Assembly: GCA_025558095.1 (NCBI GenBank)
Contig: JAIVFI010000043.1
Coordinates: 372,001-436,000, forward strand
Length of the DNA: 64,000 bases
From: Hyaloraphidium curvatum SAG 235-1
Lineage: Eukaryota > Fungi > Monoblepharomycota
Reading direction: 5' to 3'
The translations under genes and the position numbers were made by a program. The notes below the pieces were generated by a model. That model worked only from the letters and a program-made list of their open reading frames with translations. It was not told the DNA's origin and searched no databases. Positions 1-9,082 of the stretch are shown here, piece after piece. Position 1 is the first letter of the stretch. Each line of letters begins with the position of its first letter.

Positions 1-2553
1 TCCAAGCGCTTCGTCTTGTTCACGGATGCCAGCGATATCGGCCTCGGCGCGGTGCTCAGCCAGCGGGACTCCGATGGCAAGGAGTACGTCATCGCCTACG
101 CCAGCCGCGCTCTGCAGCCGAACGAGCGCAAGTGGGACACTCGGGAGCGCGAAGCCCTGGCCGTTGTTTGGGCATGCGAGCATTTCCGGGCGTATTTGAT
201 CGGGGACGAGTTTGAGGTGGTCACCGACCATAGCGCCCTCAAATGGCTCTTGGAGACCTCCAAGCCGGGCCGCCTACAGCGCTGGATCCTCCGGCTCTCG
301 GACTTCAGGTTCCAGATCATCCATCGCTCGGGCAAAGCGAACTCCAACGCCGACTTCCTGTCTCGTCAGCTCGTGGCGCCGTCGCCCGACGAGGACGTGC
401 CTATGGGCGACCCCGAGGAAATCTTGGACATCCCTGCCTTTTGGCCCCCAAACCCTCCCGACCCCTTGCCTTTTTCTTCTTTTTCTGGGGGGGGACGGGC
501 GCCCGGATTCCTCTCCGGGAGTGATCTCGGTCAGACTTCCCGTTCTTCGTCAACCCCAGTCACCGAGTCAGACTCGGGACGAGCTACTGCGGGTTCCTCA
601 GTCAATTGTGAATCAATGGAGCGAGTGCTGTCTGGCACGGAGTTCCCGGCCACGGTTGCCGCAGTGGAGGGAACCCTGTGGAGCGATCCGGGGACCCTGC
701 CCGAGGCTGCGGCACCGGAGACGCAGATCCTCCTGCCGATCCCAACGACGAACGCACAGGTCGACCCGGCAGACGTGCCTGAGCGAGACCTGGCGTTCCT
801 TCATCCGGCACTGCTTGAGGTGCTACCCGATGTCGGGGGCATCAGTGCTATTGACCTTGCCGACGTCAGATCCCGGGATGCCCTGCGCAAAGTGCAAGAA
901 GCCGACGTCGAGACCAGCGCGCTGATCCGCTTCGTACGAGACGGGGAGCTCCCTCCCAACGTGAATCTGGCCAAATTCTGCAAGAAGTACGGCGAGCAGT
1001 ACTTCCTCGCTACGGACGGCGTGCTCTGCCGGCGCGATGTACTCGCGACTGGTACCCGTCGTATCCCGGTCACCCAGCTCGTGATACCGCACGAGCTGAG
1101 GGAGGCCTACCTGCAACGTGCGCACGACGATCCCCTGAGCGGGCACGTCGGGCGACACCGGGCGTACAGCAATCTGCGGCGCCGCGTATATTGGGTCGGC
1201 ATGGCGCACGACGTTCGCCGCTGGACGCGAGCCTGCCTTACATGCATGACCCGGAAGATGCCTTCGGTATCGAACCAGGGCTTACTGAAATCGGTTCCTC
1301 TCACAGGTCCCAACGAGGACATCTACATCGACTACATCGGCGAGATCAATCCGGCCACGCCCCGCGGCAACAAGTACCTTCTCGTCGTCTACGATCCGTT
1401 CACTAAATGGGTCGCGGCGTATCCGACTCCGGACCTCTCTGGGCCGACGACGGCGAAGCTGCTCTATACGCGATGGATTCTCGAGCACGGTCTTCCGAAG
1501 CGGATTCACCACGACAACGCCTCGAACCTGGACAACCATTACATGGAGTACCTGCTCAAGCTACTCGGCATCAACCGGGGCCTGGTCACGGTTGGGCATC
1601 CCAGGGCTTCCCTCGCGGAGCGCCCGAACCGGTGGATCATCGACGCCCTGAGCGCAGCGGTCTCCAAGAACTACCAGACATGGGACGAGGACATCGTGGG
1701 GGTCATCTTTGCCTTCCGGACCTCCATCCACGCGACGACCGGCGAAACTCCGTTCTTTCTGATGCATGGTCGGGATGCTCGTATTCCGCTCGACCTACTT
1801 TACGACGAGACCGAGATTCGCGAGCCAGTGCACCTGCGGGCCAGCGACGAGGAGGACAAGAAGACAGAGGATGAGCGCCGGCGGACCTACGTCGTGGAGC
1901 TCGTGGCGCAGCTTCGTGCGGCCTACGACCTGGTGGCCGAGAAGATGGCCGCAGCGGCGGAGACTCGGAACGCCAAGGCCAACGCTACCCGGCTTCCGAT
2001 TACCTTCCGCCCCGGCGACCTCGTGCTCATCTGGGGACCAGAACGACCGCGCAAGGGCGAGCCGGGCAAGTTCGTCTCTCGTTATCTTGGGCCCTACCGC
2101 ATCGAGGAGTCAGGCCACACCGAGCTCACCTGGAAGTGTAGACACGTCTACGAGACCGACCACGTCACCACTGTGCATGTGGACCGGCTGGCGCGCTACA
2201 AGCCTTGGGAGTCGGCCACCTTCAACGCGCGCTCGTGGAACGCACGCGCCCCGGAGCTCGCCGCCGGTGAAGAGCTCGATCTCTCGGAACCGGTGAACGA
2301 GTTCGAAGAGGAAATCGAGGTCGAGAACGCGCTTGGGAACGAGCAGGAGTACACCGTCGAGGACATCGTCGGCCACGAGGGCCAGGGTCACGGACTCAAG
2401 TTCGAGGTCAAGTGGCGGGGCTTCGCTCGCACGACCAAGCTCCCTCTGGACATGTTGCACGGCGCCATAGGGATCGTCCGCGCCTATGCCGATCGCGTTG
2501 GTCTCCAGCTCCCGACGGGTCTCCCCAGGCGCATGCGGACTCGGCGTCGCTAG
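1..2553 (+). CDS. pol: pol polyprotein, partial: RNase H, HHCC zinc finger, rve integrase, GPY/F motif, chromodomain
   Basis: TDASDIGLGAVL and EREALAV..TDH (RNase H); HDDPLSGH...CLTC; IDY..D, HDN, ERPNR (DDE); YLGPYRI; EYTVEDIVGH..FEVKWRGF chromodomain; uninterrupted ORF. Confidence 0.96.
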   Translation, partial: SKRFVLFTDASDIGLGAVLSQRDSDGKEYVIAYASRALQPNERKWDTREREALAVVWACEHFRAYLIGDEFEVVTDHSALKWLLETSKPGRLQRWILRLSDFRFQIIHRSGKANSNADFLSRQLVAPSPDEDVPMGDPEEILDIPAFWPPNPPDPLPFSSFSGGGRAPGFLSGSDLGQTSRSSSTPVTESDSGRATAGSSVNCESMERVLSGTEFPATVAAVEGTLWSDPGTLPEAAAPETQILLPIPTTNAQVDPADVPERDLAFLHPALLEVLPDVGGISAIDLADVRSRDALRKVQEADVETSALIRFVRDGELPPNVNLAKFCKKYGEQYFLATDGVLCRRDVLATGTRRIPVTQLVIPHELREAYLQRAHDDPLSGHVGRHRAYSNLRRRVYWVGMAHDVRRWTRACLTCMTRKMPSVSNQGLLKSVPLTGPNEDIYIDYIGEINPATPRGNKYLLVVYDPFTKWVAAYPTPDLSGPTTAKLLYTRWILEHGLPKRIHHDNASNLDNHYMEYLLKLLGINRGLVTVGHPRASLAERPNRWIIDALSAAVSKNYQTWDEDIVGVIFAFRTSIHATTGETPFFLMHGRDARIPLDLLYDETEIREPVHLRASDEEDKKTEDERRRTYVVELVAQLRAAYDLVAEKMAAAAETRNAKANATRLPITFRPGDLVLIWGPERPRKGEPGKFVSRYLGPYRIEESGHTELTWKCRHVYETDHVTTVHVDRLARYKPWESATFNARSWNARAPELAAGEELDLSEPVNEFEEEIEVENALGNEQEYTVEDIVGHEGQGHGLKFEVKWRGFARTTKLPLDMLHGAIGIVRAYADRVGLQLPTGLPRRMRTRRR

Positions 2554-2623
2554 TAACACCAACGACGTCTATCCGGTCACAGCACTACCATCTCTGTGCT
2601 CCGATCCCCGGCTTTTCACTGAC

Positions 2624-3609
2624 TCAAACCCGACGTACTACCTCGAGCCTATCCTCGACCCCCTCGAACGCCAACTTGTGATACCCGGACTGAAAATGCG
2701 TGTTCAGATTGCCCAGGAGGCCCTTAGCCTTGTGCTTTACCAGATGGCACCACGGGAACGAGCATACCGCCACTTCGCCCTTGGTGGGGCTCCGGTACAG
2801 TTCGCCGGCGTACGTTCCGGCAATCTTCCATCGGAGGAAGGAGCCTGCCGGCACGGCATCAGGGACCTTCTTCGTCACCCGTTCCGCCTTCAAGCCCCAG
2901 ACCGGCGACGACTTCTTCATCTGGCACATTCAGTGACGATCAGCGCTTGTGGGGCGTACTCCCGTCGAGCCGTTCACCTGCGCAATCTGCTCCCGGGCCT
3001 CCCCGCGCTGCACCACATGCCCCTCGTCTTTACCTGAAGTTGCCGTTTGGGCCGTCTGGAAGGCGCTCCCTTGTTCAGTGGCGGCCTCGAAGTCGCCTAA
3101 GTGGTCCAGCTCCCAAGAGGGCGCATGAAGCGTGACTGACAGCACGGGGACTTCGTCGGCCGCCTCGAGCTCCTCCCTCGAGTCCGCCGCCGACTCGCCC
3201 TCGCCGACGGAAGGCGCACCCTTCGACGACATCGCCGGCAGGAAGACGCCGGAGGTCCGGGTTGCGGCCGCGGCCGCGATCGGGTCGTTGCCTCTGGCCC
3301 CGCCAGCCTCGCGCAGCTTGGCGGTCCCGCCGGCCTCGCGCAGCTCGGCGACGAGCCGACGGAGCACTCGGACCTCGACAACGACGTTCCCAGCCTCTTC
3401 GGCCAGCGGCAACATCCCGCGCATGGCGGCCAGACGCACCAGTTGCAGGAAGCAGTCGACCACGTCGTCCTCCTGGCGCGGCGCTGAGCTCCCGTTCGAG
3501 GACCACGCCGCTACGCTCTTACCTTGGTGCACAGCAGGACGTCGAAGGTCGGCAACCGAACCTCGAACCACGAACTCGGCGGGACGACGTTCGGCAGCTC
3601 CGCACTCAT
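2624..3609 (-). CDS. Antisense spliced accessory gene of the retrotransposon (~292 aa) with a C-terminal C2H2 zinc finger
   Basis: ATG 3609; exons 3609-3523, 3472-2978, 2920-2624; introns AAG|GTAAGA...GCCAG (50 nt) and CAG|GTGAAC...CTGAT...GCCAG (57 nt), both phase 0, join three track ORFs in frame; C-x4-C-x16-H-x5-H at 2764-2678. Confidence 0.7.
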
Positions 3610-3749
3610 GACAGGCGCGGAGATCCCCCCAGCTCTTCTGGACCCTACGTCGCGATCCCCCGCGAGCGCTTTCGTCGACGCAATGGCGTACGGCCCTCGC
3701 TCGCGCCCCGTCCCCCGTGGCGGGGACTGGTGACCCGGTGTGCGGGCGA

Positions 3750-3886
3750 ACTCGCGGTCGACTCGACTCGCAGTTGACTCGCGGTTGACTCGCGGTTGGC
3801 TCGCGGTTGACTCGCAAGTGACTCGCGAGTCACTCGCGAGTCGCTCGCAAGTCACTCGCGAGCGACTTGCGATGCACTCGCGAGTT
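3750..3886. repeat. Internal tandem array of ~12 x 11-bp units, consensus ACTCGCG(A/G)(G/T)T(G/C), palindromic core ACTCGCGAGT
   Basis: Directly visible: actcgcggttg, actcgcaagtg, actcgcgagtc...; CATATAAG at 3902-3909 just downstream. Confidence 0.95.
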
Positions 3887-3977
3887 GCCTGCGCTTCGCA
3901 CCATATAAGCGGCGGACCACAGGAGGCCGCGGCCGCGGACTACGCACCCAACGTCGACCTCGCCGCTACCGTCTCCC

Positions 3978-5243
3978 ATGGCGACCCCCACGACTGCCGG
4001 CCACAACCTGCGGCCCCGCCGGCCGCATGTGGCCACGGCGCCGCCGCCGGCGACTGCGCCCGTCGCTGCGTTGCCTGGCGTCGTACCCCCGGACTATCGG
4101 TCGGCGCTTGCCTCCCTCTCGACCCGGCTGGACGACCTCCGGGCCGACCTCGACGTCAGACACTCCCAGACGACGGCCCACTTGCACAAGGTCGAGCAGG
4201 CCGCCTTCTCCGCGGTCATGCCCATCCGCGCAGCCCTCGACGCACTCCACCCGGTGCTCAACACCCTCGTCAATGTCGGCAACCTGGAGCAGCACGCTCT
4301 TGACCGCGTAACGGCGACGCTCGAGCAGCAAGAGGCCCGCCTGGACGCCCAGATCCGCCAGCAGCGTGACGAGCTCCAGGTGGTCCTCAGTGGCCGCCAC
4401 CGCGAACTTGAGTTCGCCGTCACCGCCTTGCGCCGGACCGACGACGCTCGTCTCGGTGCCATCGAGACGCAGCTCGACCGGCTTGCGTTGGTGCTCGAGG
4501 CTCAACGTCAGAACTTCAACGGCATTCTCCTGGTGGACGAAGCTACCATCGAGGAGTTGAGGGAGTTCGGCTCTTCCCTCGCCGGGCTGGTTGCTCAGAC
4601 CGGGACCAACCTCGAAACCACCATCGAGACCGTCGTCGAGACCAATCTCGCCCGTCACAACAATGGCCCCATGGCGGAGTTTGCGGCCGACCTCAAGAGC
4701 GTCCTGGCGGCCCATCTGCAGCGATTTGGGTCGGAGCAGCACAAGCAGCTCATGCTTTCAGCTCAAGACCACACCACGCTCCTCACGGCCGGCCTGAACG
4801 CGCAGCGCGAGCACTTCACCAAGACCGCCGACGAGCAACGGGCCCTCCTGCGTCGCTTCCTCGGCAATCAAGTGGCTCCCCTGGCGGGGCAAACGACGCC
4901 CGCCGTGGTCACCTCCACGCCGGTCGGCCGCGTCAAGGACGAGGACCTCGTCACCTCCGACGATGAGGCTGGGGATATGCAACCTCCAGCTCCTCGCCCC
5001 GAGAGCGTGTCCAGCAGCGACGCCTCCTCCATCGTCTCGCAGGACGACGGCCTCTTGGCCGCCCTGTACGACGACATCCCGGCCGCTCCCTACAAGTCGA
5101 CCATGCCCCCGGTCTACACCCCCTCGGCCGCGGACGGCTCAGCCGTGCATGCCGCCTTCGCTCTCGGCTTTACCCGCCGGCTCCGCGCCCCGCCGCCGAG
5201 CGACGACGAGGCGGACGCCGACGTCGACTTTGAGGACGCCTAA
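3978..5243 (+). CDS. Retrotransposon accessory sense ORF, 421 aa, long predicted coiled coil, acidic/Pro-rich C-terminus
   Basis: Intronless ATG-TAA ORF inside the element; L/Q/E heptad-like composition; no signal peptide or TM segment. Confidence 0.75.
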   Translation: MATPTTAGHNLRPRRPHVATAPPPATAPVAALPGVVPPDYRSALASLSTRLDDLRADLDVRHSQTTAHLHKVEQAAFSAVMPIRAALDALHPVLNTLVNVGNLEQHALDRVTATLEQQEARLDAQIRQQRDELQVVLSGRHRELEFAVTALRRTDDARLGAIETQLDRLALVLEAQRQNFNGILLVDEATIEELREFGSSLAGLVAQTGTNLETTIETVVETNLARHNNGPMAEFAADLKSVLAAHLQRFGSEQHKQLMLSAQDHTTLLTAGLNAQREHFTKTADEQRALLRRFLGNQVAPLAGQTTPAVVTSTPVGRVKDEDLVTSDDEAGDMQPPAPRPESVSSSDASSIVSQDDGLLAALYDDIPAAPYKSTMPPVYTPSAADGSAVHAAFALGFTRRLRAPPPSDDEADADVDFEDA

Positions 5244-5366
5244 GCCACCCTTCGGCCCTACACTCTCCAACATCTGTTGTCTCCACCTCGGCCTTCAACA
5301 TCTTCTACTGCAAGCATGACGTCACTCCGCGGAGGATCTTCGATTTCGTGGCGCCGAGGGCGGCGC

Positions 5367-5385
5367 CTTCTTTTGGGTGGGGGCG
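5367..5385 (+). promoter_or_regulatory. U-box plus polypurine tract (PPT)
   Basis: CTTCTTTTGGGTGGGGGCG immediately before the LTR-opening TG at 5386. Confidence 0.7.
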
Positions 5386-5861
5386 TGCGAAGGTACAGGA
5401 CGTCTGACATTCGGACAAGGGTATTTTCATTTTCGGTTCGGAGGCGTGGAGGCGTCGGTCCTCGCGATCGACTCGTGATCGACTCGCGATCGACTCGCGA
5501 GTGACTCGCGAGTCACTCGCGAGCGACTCGCGAGCGACTCGCAAGTGACTCGGCACAGCCACCCTCCTGGGATATATAAAGAGCGGGACATGTAACAGTA
5601 CAATCTTGATCGCCAGTTGACTCTACGTGCTCTCCGTGTCGTTCGACCACCGTGCGGAACCCCGCCCGGCCGGATCCTCGTTCTGAGAGCCCTTGGGACG
5701 CACCCCGGGAGACATCCCGTAACCTCTTTCCCCCGGCTACAGTCAAGTATCTTCAGCGCTGTTCGCTTATTCATATTCAGGGCCTATCCGACCCGAAGAG
5801 CCGAGCGGGATTCGCGCGCCGGGTTAGAGCTTCAGGCCCGGTTCCGACCCGGACCGTCGCA
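5386..5861 (+). repeat. 3' LTR (476 bp)
   Basis: Starts TGCGAAGGTAC, ends GGACCGTCGCA (9/11 inverted match); contains the 11-bp array and TATATAAA at 5573-5580; partner 5' LTR not in window. Confidence 0.75.
5460..5552. repeat. LTR U3 tandem array of ~8 x 11-bp ACTCGCGA(G/T)NN units
   Basis: Directly visible; same unit as 3750-3886; ends ~20 bp upstream of the TATA box. Confidence 0.95.
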
Positions 5862-6657
5862 CTTACTTGTACGCTTCCGGCTTTGCCTCCCGCTCCTGCA
5901 CGAGGCCGACTACCCTGGTCTTTCCTTGCCCTGCCGGCGGGGCTGCAAGCGATCGGCCATGTCGCTGACGGGGGAGCACGCGTTCTCGGGCTGCTATGGC
6001 CGGGATCTCTTCAGTCCTGGTCACGACGACATTTGCGCGGCCATCCGCGCGGCGCTTCGCTCCATCCCGCTCCTCCGCGTGCACCCCATGCCGCCAAACC
6101 TCCTTGCGCATGGCTACGAGACTGTCACCCCGCCCACGCCTGCGGATGCTGGCCGCCTTGGCGACGTTCTCATCACGCACCGCGAAACCCGGAAACGGTG
6201 GTTGCTCGAGATCAAGACCCTCACCTCTATGGCCCATTTGCACACGGGCCTGGTCTTCTCGGTCCCGGGCCACGCAGTCGGACGGCGGGTCGAGGCCGCC
6301 AGGAAGGACTACTCCCGTTTCGTCTTCAACGCCAACTTCTACCCTCTGATCGTGCTTGCTTTTGATTCGTACAGCGCTGTCTCTGCCACTTTCTCGCGCT
6401 TCTCCTCGGAGATGGGGCGCATCCAGTATCCCGGGATCGTCGGCCGCGATGGACAGCCCGTGGACCTCGATGGCCTTTACTCTCGTTTTGTGCGGCGCTT
6501 CCGCGAACGGATCGCGGTGGCCTGGGCTCTTGGCTTCGCGGCCCAACTCCAACACTGGCTTCAGCTGTGCACCGAAGCCGCCGCTGTCAACGCTCCGGCC
6601 CCCGCGCCGGTCGCATTTGGTTTGAATGTAGATGAGGAGCTGATTCTTGGGGCGTAG
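5862..6657 (+). mobile_element. 3' end of a CRE/R2-type non-LTR retrotransposon ORF (zinc knuckle plus restriction-like endonuclease), interrupted by the Gypsy element
   Basis: VRFRLCLP (RLGLP-like); CRRGC-x10-H-x4-C knuckle; GHDDI (RHD-like); RLGDVLI...LLEIKT (PD-(D/E)xK); ARKDY; FYPLIVLAFDSY. Confidence 0.7.
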
Positions 6658-6715
6658 GGGGATTTCTAAGTGTACGGTGGGATTGCTAGCTCCTCATTAC
6701 ACATTGCGCGCAGCA

Positions 6716-9082
6716 ATGGCGTCCGACGGCGAGCGGGGCCGCGATGGCGACCGGAAGGGCGAAAAGAAGGACAAGAAGCGGCGACGCTCGCGGTCGTCGA
6801 GCGGCTCGTCGGACTCGGACGCCGAGCGGCGACGGCGGAAGCGGAAGGAGAAGAAGGAGCGGCGGCGCGACCGCCACAAACACGCCGACGGGCAGCGCGG
6901 GGGCGGGGAGGAGCTCTGGGTCGAGAAGGCGCCGGCGGCGCCCGCAGCGGCGGGTGGTGCCCAGGCGGGGAGCCGGGAGGCCCCGAAGGAACCAGAGGAA
7001 CGCCCGACGGACACGGCCCCTGCGCCGGCTCGGCCCGCAGACGCCGGCTGGATGTCGTTTTCTGCTCCGAAACGGGACGACGATGCCGCCGAGGACGAAA
7101 ACACCGGGGCAGCAGCGGCGGTCGACTCGGGCCGACCGTCGGACCCATTCGCGGCCATGTTCGACGCCTCGACCACGCAGCGCAAGTCCAAGGCCGAGCT
7201 GCAGGAGGAAAAGCGCGCAGCCGAGGCGCGCCTGCGCGAGCCCGGCCGCTCGGACCGCGAGCTGAACCCGTACTGGAAGGACGGCGGCGACGGGCTTCCG
7301 TCCGACCAGCGGAAAAGGAAGCACGAGTACGGCGACGCCGGCTCCGCTTGGCGGATGCTGAAGCTGCGCAAGGCGAGGGAGATGGCTGAGGAGGAGGGGC
7401 GGAGCATCGAGGAGGTGGCGCTGGAGCGGTTCGGGTCGATGGAGGAGTACCTGGACGCCGTGGAGGAGCGGAAGTACCTCGACGCCCGCGGCAGGGGCTC
7501 GTCGGGCGGCCGCGACCGTGACAGGGACAGGGACCGCGATAGGGACGGGCGGCGAAGGGTGGAGGACCGCGACGTGGCCGGCCGCGCCGTGCTGGCCGCC
7601 CGGGGCGAGGCCTTCAGGCGGGCCGGCGACGACGGCGGGCGGTGGTCGCCCGCCCAGGGATCCCGCTCGGGCGGCACCCCGAGGACGGATACCCCGGGCT
7701 CGGACGCCGATCGTTGGCCCAACGACGGCACTTCCAAGCCCGCCGCGCCGACATCCGCCTCCCGCTACCCCCCCGTCTCCATCCCCTCCGCCATCCCCAC
7801 CCCGCCGCCCGGCACCCCGCCGCCCGGCCGCCCCGTGCTCACCACGGACCAGCTCAACAAGCTCCAGGCCCGCATCCTCAAGGCCCGCATCTCCAAGGAC
7901 CCCAACCTGCCCGCGCTGGAGCGCGAGTACGCCGAGGAGAAGCGCCGCGCCGCCGCGGCGCCCCCGGACGTCGTCGTGCTGCCCACCGTCGACTCGCGCG
8001 GCAGGCTGCAGGACCTCCCTTCTGGCTCCGCTTCGGGACCTCCGCGGTCTGCGGGACCGGCCAAGCGCGCCAAGCCGTGGGCCGCGGACAAGGCGCAGGG
8101 CGACGCCGAGGCCGACCCGTCCCGCGCGCCCGATCTTATGGAGCTGCTGCGGAGGGAGAAGATGGGCGTGGGGGAGGGGTACGACCGCGAGCTGGCGGAG
8201 CGGATCGCGCGGGACTCGGCGTTCCGGGACAACCTGGACTACATGGACGAGCAGTCGGACCGCATGGCCCGGCAGGTCGGGAGGTCGGACGACAAGAAGA
8301 GGCAGACGGCGGTGGACGACCACCGGAGGATGCAGACGGCGCTGGAGCGGTGCGCGTACTGCTACCAGGACGAGGGCAAGACGGCGCCCAAGGTGCCCGT
8401 GGTGTCGCTGGGGAACAGGACCTACCTGGGCCTGACGCAGACGGTGGAGATGGCCAAGGGGCACTGCGCGATTGTGCCGGTGCAGCACGTCAACAACTCG
8501 CTGGAGCTGGAGGACGACGCGTGGGAGGAAGTGAGGGTACGTCGCTCAAAGTGTTGTCTGGCCCGACTGCCGCTCATCCCTCCCCTCTTTCAGAACTTCA
8601 TGAAGTGCCTCACCCAGCTCTACGCCACCTTCGACCCGCCCTGCTCCCCCATCTTCATCGAGTCCTTCGCCAACCCCAAGCACCGCCGGCACTGCGTCAT
8701 CGAGGCCATCCCGGTCCCGCAGGACCTCGCCGCCGACGCCCCCGCCTACTTCCGCGACGCCCTCCAGAGCGCCGAGGAGGAATGGACGGTGCACCGCAAG
8801 GTGATCGACACGCGCGAGGGCGGCATCCGCCGGCACATGGTCAAGGAACTGCCCTACTTCCACGTCTGGTTCGGGCCCAACGGCGGCTTCGGCCACGTGA
8901 TCGAGGACTCGGCGTCGTGGCCGGACTGGTTCGGCAAGGAGGTGGTCGCGGGGATGATGGACCTGCCGCCGGAGCTGTGGAGGAAGCCGCGGTGGGCGGA
9001 CCGCAGGGACGAGGCGGGGAGGCTGAAGAGGTTCAGGGAGGGGTGGGACGCGTTCGACTGGACCAAGGCGCTGGATGAGTGA
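6716..9082 (+). CDS. CWF19L2: CWF19-like protein 2 (CwfJ C1/C2 domains), spliceosome/lariat-associated
   Basis: LNPYWKDGGDGLP, GDAGSAWR, CAYC, GHCAIVP, HCVIEAIP, PYFHVWF, GFGHVIED; in-frame 57-nt intron 8537-8593. Confidence 0.92.
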   Translation: MASDGERGRDGDRKGEKKDKKRRRSRSSSGSSDSDAERRRRKRKEKKERRRDRHKHADGQRGGGEELWVEKAPAAPAAAGGAQAGSREAPKEPEERPTDTAPAPARPADAGWMSFSAPKRDDDAAEDENTGAAAAVDSGRPSDPFAAMFDASTTQRKSKAELQEEKRAAEARLREPGRSDRELNPYWKDGGDGLPSDQRKRKHEYGDAGSAWRMLKLRKAREMAEEEGRSIEEVALERFGSMEEYLDAVEERKYLDARGRGSSGGRDRDRDRDRDRDGRRRVEDRDVAGRAVLAARGEAFRRAGDDGGRWSPAQGSRSGGTPRTDTPGSDADRWPNDGTSKPAAPTSASRYPPVSIPSAIPTPPPGTPPPGRPVLTTDQLNKLQARILKARISKDPNLPALEREYAEEKRRAAAAPPDVVVLPTVDSRGRLQDLPSGSASGPPRSAGPAKRAKPWAADKAQGDAEADPSRAPDLMELLRREKMGVGEGYDRELAERIARDSAFRDNLDYMDEQSDRMARQVGRSDDKKRQTAVDDHRRMQTALERCAYCYQDEGKTAPKVPVVSLGNRTYLGLTQTVEMAKGHCAIVPVQHVNNSLELEDDAWEEVRVRRSKCCLARLPLIPPLFQNFMKCLTQLYATFDPPCSPIFIESFANPKHRRHCVIEAIPVPQDLAADAPAYFRDALQSAEEEWTVHRKVIDTREGGIRRHMVKELPYFHVWFGPNGGFGHVIEDSASWPDWFGKEVVAGMMDLPPELWRKPRWADRRDEAGRLKRFREGWDAFDWTKALDE

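Follow-up and report, generated by a model that had tools for sequence, protein, structure and literature searches.

The window analysed here, a stretch of 64,000 nucleotides from contig JAIVFI010000043.1 of Hyaloraphidium curvatum SAG 235-1 (assembly GCA_025558095.1, positions 372,001 to 436,000 of the forward strand), starts inside a long terminal repeat (LTR) retrotransposon. Hyaloraphidium curvatum is an early-diverging freshwater fungus of the Monoblepharomycota and, judging from its domains, the element is a chromodomain-bearing member of the Ty3/gypsy group. The window holds the 3' part of pol, a cassette of two divergent accessory genes with an array of 11-bp repeats between them, and a 3' LTR in which the same repeat recurs; gag, protease, reverse transcriptase, the 5' LTR and the target-site duplication lie upstream of position 1 and thus beyond the 64 kb. 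The claim of the first-pass annotation that two accessory genes are present between the pol stop and the polypurine tract (PPT) is borne out: there is a sense open reading frame (ORF) of 421 amino acids (aa) and an antisense gene that, once spliced, encodes 292 aa. The arrangement suggests that the two genes and the LTR may be under common control, perhaps by a protein of the element itself.

An antisense gene that requires splicing

The antisense gene had been proposed to start at the ATG at 3609. The gene is real, but read without splicing this frame meets a stop after 32 codons, and two introns have to be removed. Both are skipped in the RNA assembly X1 (3473-3522 and 2921-2977 on the minus strand, each with GT..AG borders), leaving three exons that form a frame of 292 aa without stops. 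Exon 1 (3523..3609, minus strand, 29 codons) begins with the first minus-strand ATG below 3904; as none occurs between 3903 and 3610, a transcript begun at any point of the array would have its first AUG at 3609. Intron 1 (3473..3522, minus strand, 50 nt, GTAAGA...GCCAG) is skipped in X1 by a joint that is not listed for the DNA runs. Exon 2 (2978..3472, minus strand, 165 codons) encodes a short helix, which is also found in the paralog P0012 described below, followed by an acidic linker rich in Ala, Gly and Ser. Intron 2 (2921..2977, minus strand, 57 nt, GTGAAC...GCCAG) contains an in-frame stop; it is skipped in X1 (joint 2920/2978) and retained in the DNA contigs X2 2808-3475 and X3 2853-2996. 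Exon 3 (2624..2920, minus strand, 98 codons plus stop) encodes a basic domain and is supported by the X1 joint as well as by similarity to P0012.

No run is on record as RNA, and X1 was judged to be RNA from three GT..AG joints. As a control, the neighbouring CWF19-like gene of the host (6716-9082, with CwfJ domains) has an in-frame intron around 8537-8593, and this too is skipped in X1. The bin depths over the introns equal those given by the spliced contig alone (101.7 = 198.3 x 60/117 and 349.9 = 611 x 67/117); therefore only the spliced antisense form was assembled there and, since contigs drop rarer paths, this form is likely the commoner one. In a codon model whose training set included pol, the annotated frame scored best of six in all three antisense exons and in the sense ORF, and no frame was positive in the stretch 3610-3977. 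The antisense gene is thus real, transcribed and spliced. Joints found in X7, with sides of 21-25 nt, were discarded as stemming from other organisms.

A predicted zinc finger and its paralog

In the spliced antisense protein a short helix is followed by an acidic linker of low complexity and then by a basic end of 98 aa (K+R 17, D+E 8 in the finger exon) that carries a C-x4-C-x16-H-x5-H motif (aa 247-275; 2678..2764, minus strand). A second protein of H. curvatum, P0012 (DFJ74DRAFT_753412, 274 aa), is 43% identical over 90 aa of the finger exon and keeps all four ligands with the spacing C-x4-C-x18-H-x5-H, although this comparison involves two sequences only. Over the whole spliced protein the alignment with P0012 comprises 239 columns at 31.8% identity (E 4e-22). 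The antisense product is predicted, on the basis of these motifs, to be a zinc-finger protein.

The nearest finger in the PDB is that of KLF5, a weak match at E 0.42. In the Atlas, unnamed clusters reached 0.93-0.94, and the nearest named sets were zf-BED (12% of members, 0.92) and the zf-C2H2_12 finger of Spin-doc/GT2D2 (0.90). BED fingers bind transposon repeats. Among 36 longer candidate proteins none matched the finger exon at E<=1, and a search of the 50%-representatives gave two matches, P0012 and P0013. The latter, a bacterial protein with Ig repeats, has no finger ligands, and its match was discarded as an artefact of the repeats. A scan of metagenome and viral contigs with the finger alignment found nothing.

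The sense accessory ORF

The sense ORF (3978..5243, plus strand) is not longer than chance would allow, as 36 of 500 order-2 simulations reached 421 aa. At this GC content length alone is unremarkable, and the ORF is accepted because its codon bias, an entry in a database and coverage by RNA speak for it. The NCBI names H. curvatum for a protein identical to the sense ORF over 338 aa, as it does for P0012, and the X1 contig 3522-5413 covers the ORF and runs unbroken across the array. X1 has a higher contig depth over the sense ORF and lacks contigs over part of the LTR, but neither observation was given weight. A model of low confidence (mean predicted local distance difference test score, pLDDT, 53) predicts long helices between aa 38 and 299; the tail is acidic and rich in Pro and Ser, and the protein contains no Cys. 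With a maximal 19-residue hydropathy of 1.2 there is no transmembrane-like segment, and the product is therefore not env-like. No homologs were found beyond its own cluster: the Atlas gave at most 0.79, the BFVD fold search none at E<=0.001, and NCBIfam, PHROGs and the PDB no match, while viral contigs scanned with pol or with the sense ORF yielded nothing. A match to Baculo_PEP_C fell below the cut-off and was ascribed to the helical composition.

One NCBI model on another contig, P0001 (DFJ74DRAFT_747442), joins antisense integrase to the final 338 sense-ORF codons, in window terms 907-1202 on the minus strand plus 4227-5240 on the plus strand. The runs list no joint of this kind, and P0001 represents a rearranged copy that is either an inverted copy or an assembly artefact.

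Two arrays of one repeat, each followed by ATATAA

Between the two start codons lies an array of 11 units of 11 bp (3766..3886, with degenerate edges over 3750-3898) with the consensus ACTCGCGAGT(G/C), and eight units of the same 11-mer recur in the LTR (5460..5547, with a part unit extending to 5552). Allowing for one mismatch at most, ACTCGCGAGT occurs 12 times in the 64 kb against 3.1 expected, a number that none of 100 shuffles reached, and 10 of these 12 near-matches fall in the two arrays. The repeat had been described as an 11-bp palindromic array present in both places; the period of the units agrees with this, but perfect palindromes make up just 5 of the 19. Conservation is higher in the left half of the unit (ACTCG, 91 of 95 positions) than in the right half (CGAGT, 71 of 95), the array therefore being directional; the unit core is CTCGCG.

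Each array is followed at 25-26 nt by an ATATAA, a hexamer that occurs just twice in the 64 kb when both strands are counted. The internal box (3903..3908, plus strand) follows the last CTCG of its array by 26 nt and precedes the sense ATG by 75 nt. In the LTR the box forms part of TATATAAA (5573..5580, plus strand), where ATATAA starts at 5574 and follows the final CTCG of the LTR array by 25 nt. For the remainder of the LTR there is no counterpart within the element, the best match being 10 nt. Since array and ATATAA recur at equal spacing, we read the internal module as an old duplicate of the core of the LTR promoter, facing the sense ORF.

A search of viral contigs for the exact array gave no match, and neither an Rfam family nor a tRNA was found. 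The folding z-score of the array (-4.3) was not accepted as a sign of RNA structure, as it follows from the near-palindromic unit. Where units deviate in the CGCG core, which happens six times, the change is in each case a transition at CpG; methylation was not deduced from these, as any transition at this place is of that kind, the units share descent and CpG is not depleted.

Functionally, the internal module would start the sense mRNA near 3930 and, working backwards without a TATA box, would start the antisense mRNA between 3900 and 3610. As the arrays share one unit, one factor would occupy both, the period of 11 bp putting its sites on about one helix face. That a single factor acts on both arrays, as the first-pass annotation had suggested, is made likely by the shared unit and by the equally spaced ATATAA. 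Taken together, the two steps, an internal promoter that drives both genes and one factor that reads both promoters, are likely.

That factor could instead be a host protein. Host factors are the usual readers of LTR enhancer repeats, and the 21-bp repeats of human T-cell leukaemia virus type 1 bind CREB, with Tax as a cofactor. A host factor that reads CGCG-type sites would bind both arrays and co-regulate the accessory genes, the products of which would act elsewhere (chromatin, nuclear import). In line with this, copies that have lost the finger exon still yield RNA (joint 1350/3390 in X1, see below), although these could receive the protein in trans from intact copies, and the accessible text on the Sireviruses, which have the same layout, reports that their motifs matched the sites of host stress factors (PMC2829016). 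However, outside the arrays there are 2 near-matches to the 10-mer against 3.1 expected; this is chance level, and therefore no host promoter in the 64 kb uses the 10-mer. A host reader also leaves unexplained why an orphan finger gene has been retained beside the array. We consider a host factor possible but rather unlikely.

A candidate regulatory loop

By analogy with the foamy viruses, where Tas works with two promoters, we propose tentatively, as a reading that is plausible but somewhat short of an even chance, that the element's own finger protein binds both arrays. The factor would be, or would include, this protein, and the accessory genes would be made first. The finger protein would then switch full-length transcription from the LTR on or hold it down, with either sign fitting the scheme, and the helical, acidic sense protein might, as a speculation, serve as cofactor or scaffold. 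In its most extended form the proposal would be that a complex-retrovirus circuit was built independently, in that the core of the LTR promoter was duplicated to give an internal promoter working in both directions, with a spliced antisense zinc-finger transactivator or anti-silencer on both 11-mer arrays, a helical acidic cofactor, and fast-diverging finger/array pairs in sibling families. This extended form is doubtful. Anti-silencing in particular gains no support here, because CpG is not depleted in the element or in host DNA (observed/expected 1.07-1.40). The element does provide an unusually clean test, as it combines a transcribed, spliced finger gene with one defined 11-bp candidate site at two promoter-like places.

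Several observations weigh against the finger-protein loop. The link between finger and arrays is predicted only, and the similar layout of the Sireviruses was ascribed to host factors in the accessible text (PMC2829016). The finger is without assignment to a Pfam family, in NCBIfam or in the PDB, and a single-sequence fold model of the finger exon failed (pLDDT 40). The Atlas recognition value of 2277 is below the mark of 2300, making the likeness to BED fingers a weak lead. P0012 may lie in a retrotransposon or elsewhere in the genome. The RNA support comes from one run of one study, and the X1 contig, crossing the array without a break, shows no start site and no strand for the sense ORF. 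Finally, the H-x-x-S-x-x-H end of the finger presumably resembles that of RNA-binding fingers of the matrin/U1 type.

This finger end is present in both paralogs and could point to a different role, in which the finger binds RNA and the cassette works after transcription, where it suppresses RNA silencing of the overlapping sense and antisense RNAs or exports unspliced genomic RNA, or in which the antisense RNA limits copy number. The fact that the spliced antisense form alone was assembled over both introns would fit such a role, as would the precedent of an accessory protein acting at the RNA level, CERV of Cer1, given in the accessible part of PMC10309623, and the discussion of antisense-RNA regulation for ORFs of this kind (PMC7264820). 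Nevertheless, the finger shows no zf-met or matrin-type Pfam match even at E 5-10, and an RNA role alone does not need a frame of 292 codons with a conserved domain. We regard it as quite unlikely.

Other copies and the sibling subfamily

In the DNA run X3 the contigs of the cassette are listed with a depth of 52-60 compared to 4-6 for the neighbouring host gene, which roughly suggests around ten copies of the element, depth not being itself a copy number. The copies of the cassette are near-identical. A sibling subfamily is represented by low-depth contigs (1464-1900, 2484-2553 and 4863-4944) that are ~90% identical in the integrase. Leaving out the differences in pol at 550 and 936 as within-family, 22 of the 26 listed differences attributed to the sibling are synonymous.

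These other copies supply further points against the loop. The expectation that sibling copies carry the cassette holds for one block of 82 nt in the sense ORF, matched at >=80% with 11 differences (one of the three listed ones synonymous), but no other part of the cassette is matched at 80%, and the sibling contig departs from the window sequence at the pol stop. Either the cassette diverges much faster than pol or it is partly absent in the sibling, in which the antisense gene may be missing. In addition, a deletion derivative without 1351-3389, and thus without the finger exon, occurs in X1 and X3. Its joint (1350/3390) is non-canonical, with 2-nt microhomology and sides of 27-28 nt, and has a depth of 104 in X1 (RNA) and 12 in X3 (DNA). 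The copies concerned have likely lost the integrase core, the chromodomain and the finger exon while keeping the array and the sense ORF. Among 39 integrase relatives recovered from metagenomes (25-38% identity), none showed a match to either accessory protein or the array pattern.

The cassette might, then, be passive cargo. The internal promoter would be what remains of an old duplication of the LTR or of a nested insertion, and the captured host or transposon genes beside it (P0012 being taken as a host gene) would be transcribed but do nothing for the element. Such an origin would be consistent with the short, host-like introns, with the deleted and rearranged copies, with the same-species protein P0012 as the sole homolog of the finger exon, and with the fact that neither gene has a homolog in the 39 related loci or in the metagenome and viral scans. 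On the other hand, retrotransposition strips sense introns and keeps antisense ones, and here both introns still splice to an open frame. With 32-43% identity to P0012 the capture would be old, yet both frames are intact, and the spacing of array and ATATAA has been kept while the remaining LTR has no match inside the element. All in all, passive cargo appears improbable, and the finger-protein loop is retained as our tentative reading.

Pol, chromodomain and relatives of the element

The 3' part of pol (1..2553, plus strand, with its stop at 2553) encodes RNase H, an integrase with an H2C2 zinc-binding and a DDE domain, a GPY motif and a C-terminal chromodomain, as supported by Pfam, the PDB and alignment. 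RNase H followed by integrase is the gypsy order. The Pfam matches on the pol ORF were RT_RNaseH (E 6e-40), Integrase_H2C2 (6e-18), rve (1e-6) and Chromo (0.008), and the best PDB match was Ty3 Gag-Pol (E 2e-36). The catalytic triad is formed by D444, D505 and E540 in the window frame, and D/D/E is invariant in the alignment. With RNase H ahead of an integrase that has H2C2, D,D35E and GPY/F motifs, the element shows the domain order and motifs of Ty3/gypsy (Metaviridae).

The chromodomain (2350..2427, plus strand) is divergent, with Y...W..F at the cage positions. The match to PF00385 improves from E 0.008 on the whole pol ORF to 4e-4 on the isolated end, both below the curated cut-off, and the domain aligns with the strong chromodomain of P0003 at E 2e-17. 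The columns of the aromatic cage (Y-W-Y in Group I) hold Y, W and F, and the TWEP-like stretch that follows in P0003 is not kept. A chromodomain at the C-terminus of integrase is the hallmark of the chromoviruses, according to the accessible texts that also define the cage (PMC3248453, PMC3605345, PMC5006619). The earlier designation of the element as a chromovirus can be kept, on account of this weakly matched domain, as a statement on domain content only. The integrase has no close relative, its best matches being around 30% identical, and in a tree of 44 rows (6 of the 39 loci dropped as short, no named reference chromovirus included) it forms a long, unplaced branch outside the chromodomain-bearing cluster, with a best identity of 38%.

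Some of the related loci have additional ORFs. Gag-like ORFs (Retrotrans_gag, Ty3_capsid) are found downstream of pol at L009:3381-4829, L011:8624-10183 and L015:9240-10274, which probably reflects contigs that are circularly permuted, or tandem copies, and not a new order of the genes. In an unrelated gypsy lineage, pol is followed by a sense ORF (L010:7219-8568, L024:1211-2875, L033:6108-7094) that has a C2H2 (zf-met) finger at its N-terminus and a region that is charged or coiled-coil, without similarity to the window genes. At L030:5894-8446 an ORF of 850 aa after pol gives a weak match to Baculo_F (env-type).

The 3' LTR and the insertion site

A T run precedes the G-rich, PPT-like GGGTGGGGGCG (5375..5385, plus strand), which is directly followed by the 3' LTR (5386..5861, plus strand, 476 bp, TGCGA...TCGCA). 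The LTR boundaries given by the first-pass annotation are supported because other copies break off at both edges: at the left edge X1 has a loose end before 5384, and at the right edge loose ends before 5862 occur in X1, X2 and X3. A loose end behind 5863 in X2 continues with TGG.., resembling a primer-binding site (PBS) as found after a 5' LTR; no self-priming match of >=7 nt was found between this PBS-like end and the LTR. In X2 and X3 the summed DNA depth over the LTR is ~7-10x the depth over the internal region, which exceeds two LTRs per element and possibly reflects many solo LTRs or short derivatives.

The element has inserted into the 3' end of a multi-copy repeat (5862..6700, plus strand) of high summed depth that is not part of the LTR element, and the uninterrupted form of this repeat (5862-~6700) is seen as loose ends before 5862 in three runs. 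The repeat, which gave no Pfam match, is likely a non-LTR retrotransposon with a restriction-like endonuclease; its CCHC, HD and D..E-x-K motifs are what we take to be the signs of such elements. In X3 and X4 the repeat end is joined to LTR positions 5697-5699, suggesting that the reverse nesting occurs too.

Comparison with known systems

A close resemblance in working is to the Sireviruses, Ty1/copia elements of plants. In the accessible text of Bousios et al. 2010 (PMC2829016) their RM boxes are palindromic, CpG-rich, repeated motifs of ~10-20 bp that cluster ahead of the TATA box in the LTR and again ahead of the env-like accessory ORF, as in the H. curvatum element, and an internal promoter was proposed, with none identified. 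As described there, the Sireviruses differ in having one sense ORF, a CGG-CCG core, mostly dispersed boxes and multiple PPTs, and no antisense gene is mentioned. The H. curvatum element, in contrast, is a fungal gypsy element with head-to-tail 11-mers, a CTCGCG core, equal spacing to ATATAA and two divergent genes. The combination that defines the Sirevirus RM system (Ty1/copia, CGG-CCG core, multiple PPTs) is not found here, and the resemblance is one of working only.

The statement in the first-pass annotation that fungal elements of this kind normally encode only gag and pol was too strong, as Boty carries the antisense gene brtn (PMC7264820, PMC8365987, accessible text). Boty/BcGypsy1 of Botrytis cinerea and Sclerotinia is a fungal Ty3/gypsy element with this gene between pol and the 3' LTR. 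Compared by description only, it differs in its ascomycete host and in having one extra gene, the accessible text describing neither a second gene nor a duplicated promoter. Maize Grande (gene23), rice RIRE2 and Retand likewise have a long region between pol and the 3' LTR, with antisense ORFs whose products are predicted to be nuclear or DNA-binding (PMC7264820, PMC11963269). In Grande the antisense gene has its own upstream promoter and in Retand tandem arrays lie in the same region; a regulatory role has been proposed. The same reviews, in their accessible parts, give the function of such antisense ORFs as not known. These plant elements belong to a non-chromovirus lineage, have a TRP28 (transposase 28) domain, and their arrays are not described there as common to the LTR. 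A Pfam match to TRP28 was found in neither of the two large antisense exons nor in P0012. The Sireviruses, Boty and these plant elements, like the foamy viruses, are closer precedents than those named in the first-pass annotation.

VANC proteins target transposon-specific tandem repeats, a likeness to the pairing of protein and repeat in the present element. VANDAL transposons encode the VANC accessory protein, in which a coiled-coil element is described (PMC13547354, accessible text). They differ in being DNA transposons of dicots, with a MAIN-like fold and with demethylation shown, whereas the proteins of the present element have no family match.

Our literature searches, which did not extend to supplements and most subscription papers, found nothing on retrotransposons of H. 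curvatum or on methylation in connection with transposable elements for the genus, and no two-gene, duplicated-promoter layout in fungi. Each part thus has its precedent, and what did not appear in these searches is the divergent gene pair, the intron-bearing antisense finger gene, and the internal copy of array and ATATAA, in an early-diverging fungus.

For the proposed loop a parallel is prototype foamy virus (Tas/Bet), in which two accessory genes owe their expression to an internal promoter 3' of pol and Tas, a DNA-binding protein encoded by the virus, acts on both the internal and the LTR promoter (PMC8670036, accessible text). Foamy virus differs in being a retrovirus with env and in having both genes in sense, and binding has been shown for Tas while it is predicted for the finger protein described here. 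If the loop is true, this retrotransposon would, in the manner of the foamy viruses, encode a regulator specific for its own promoters.

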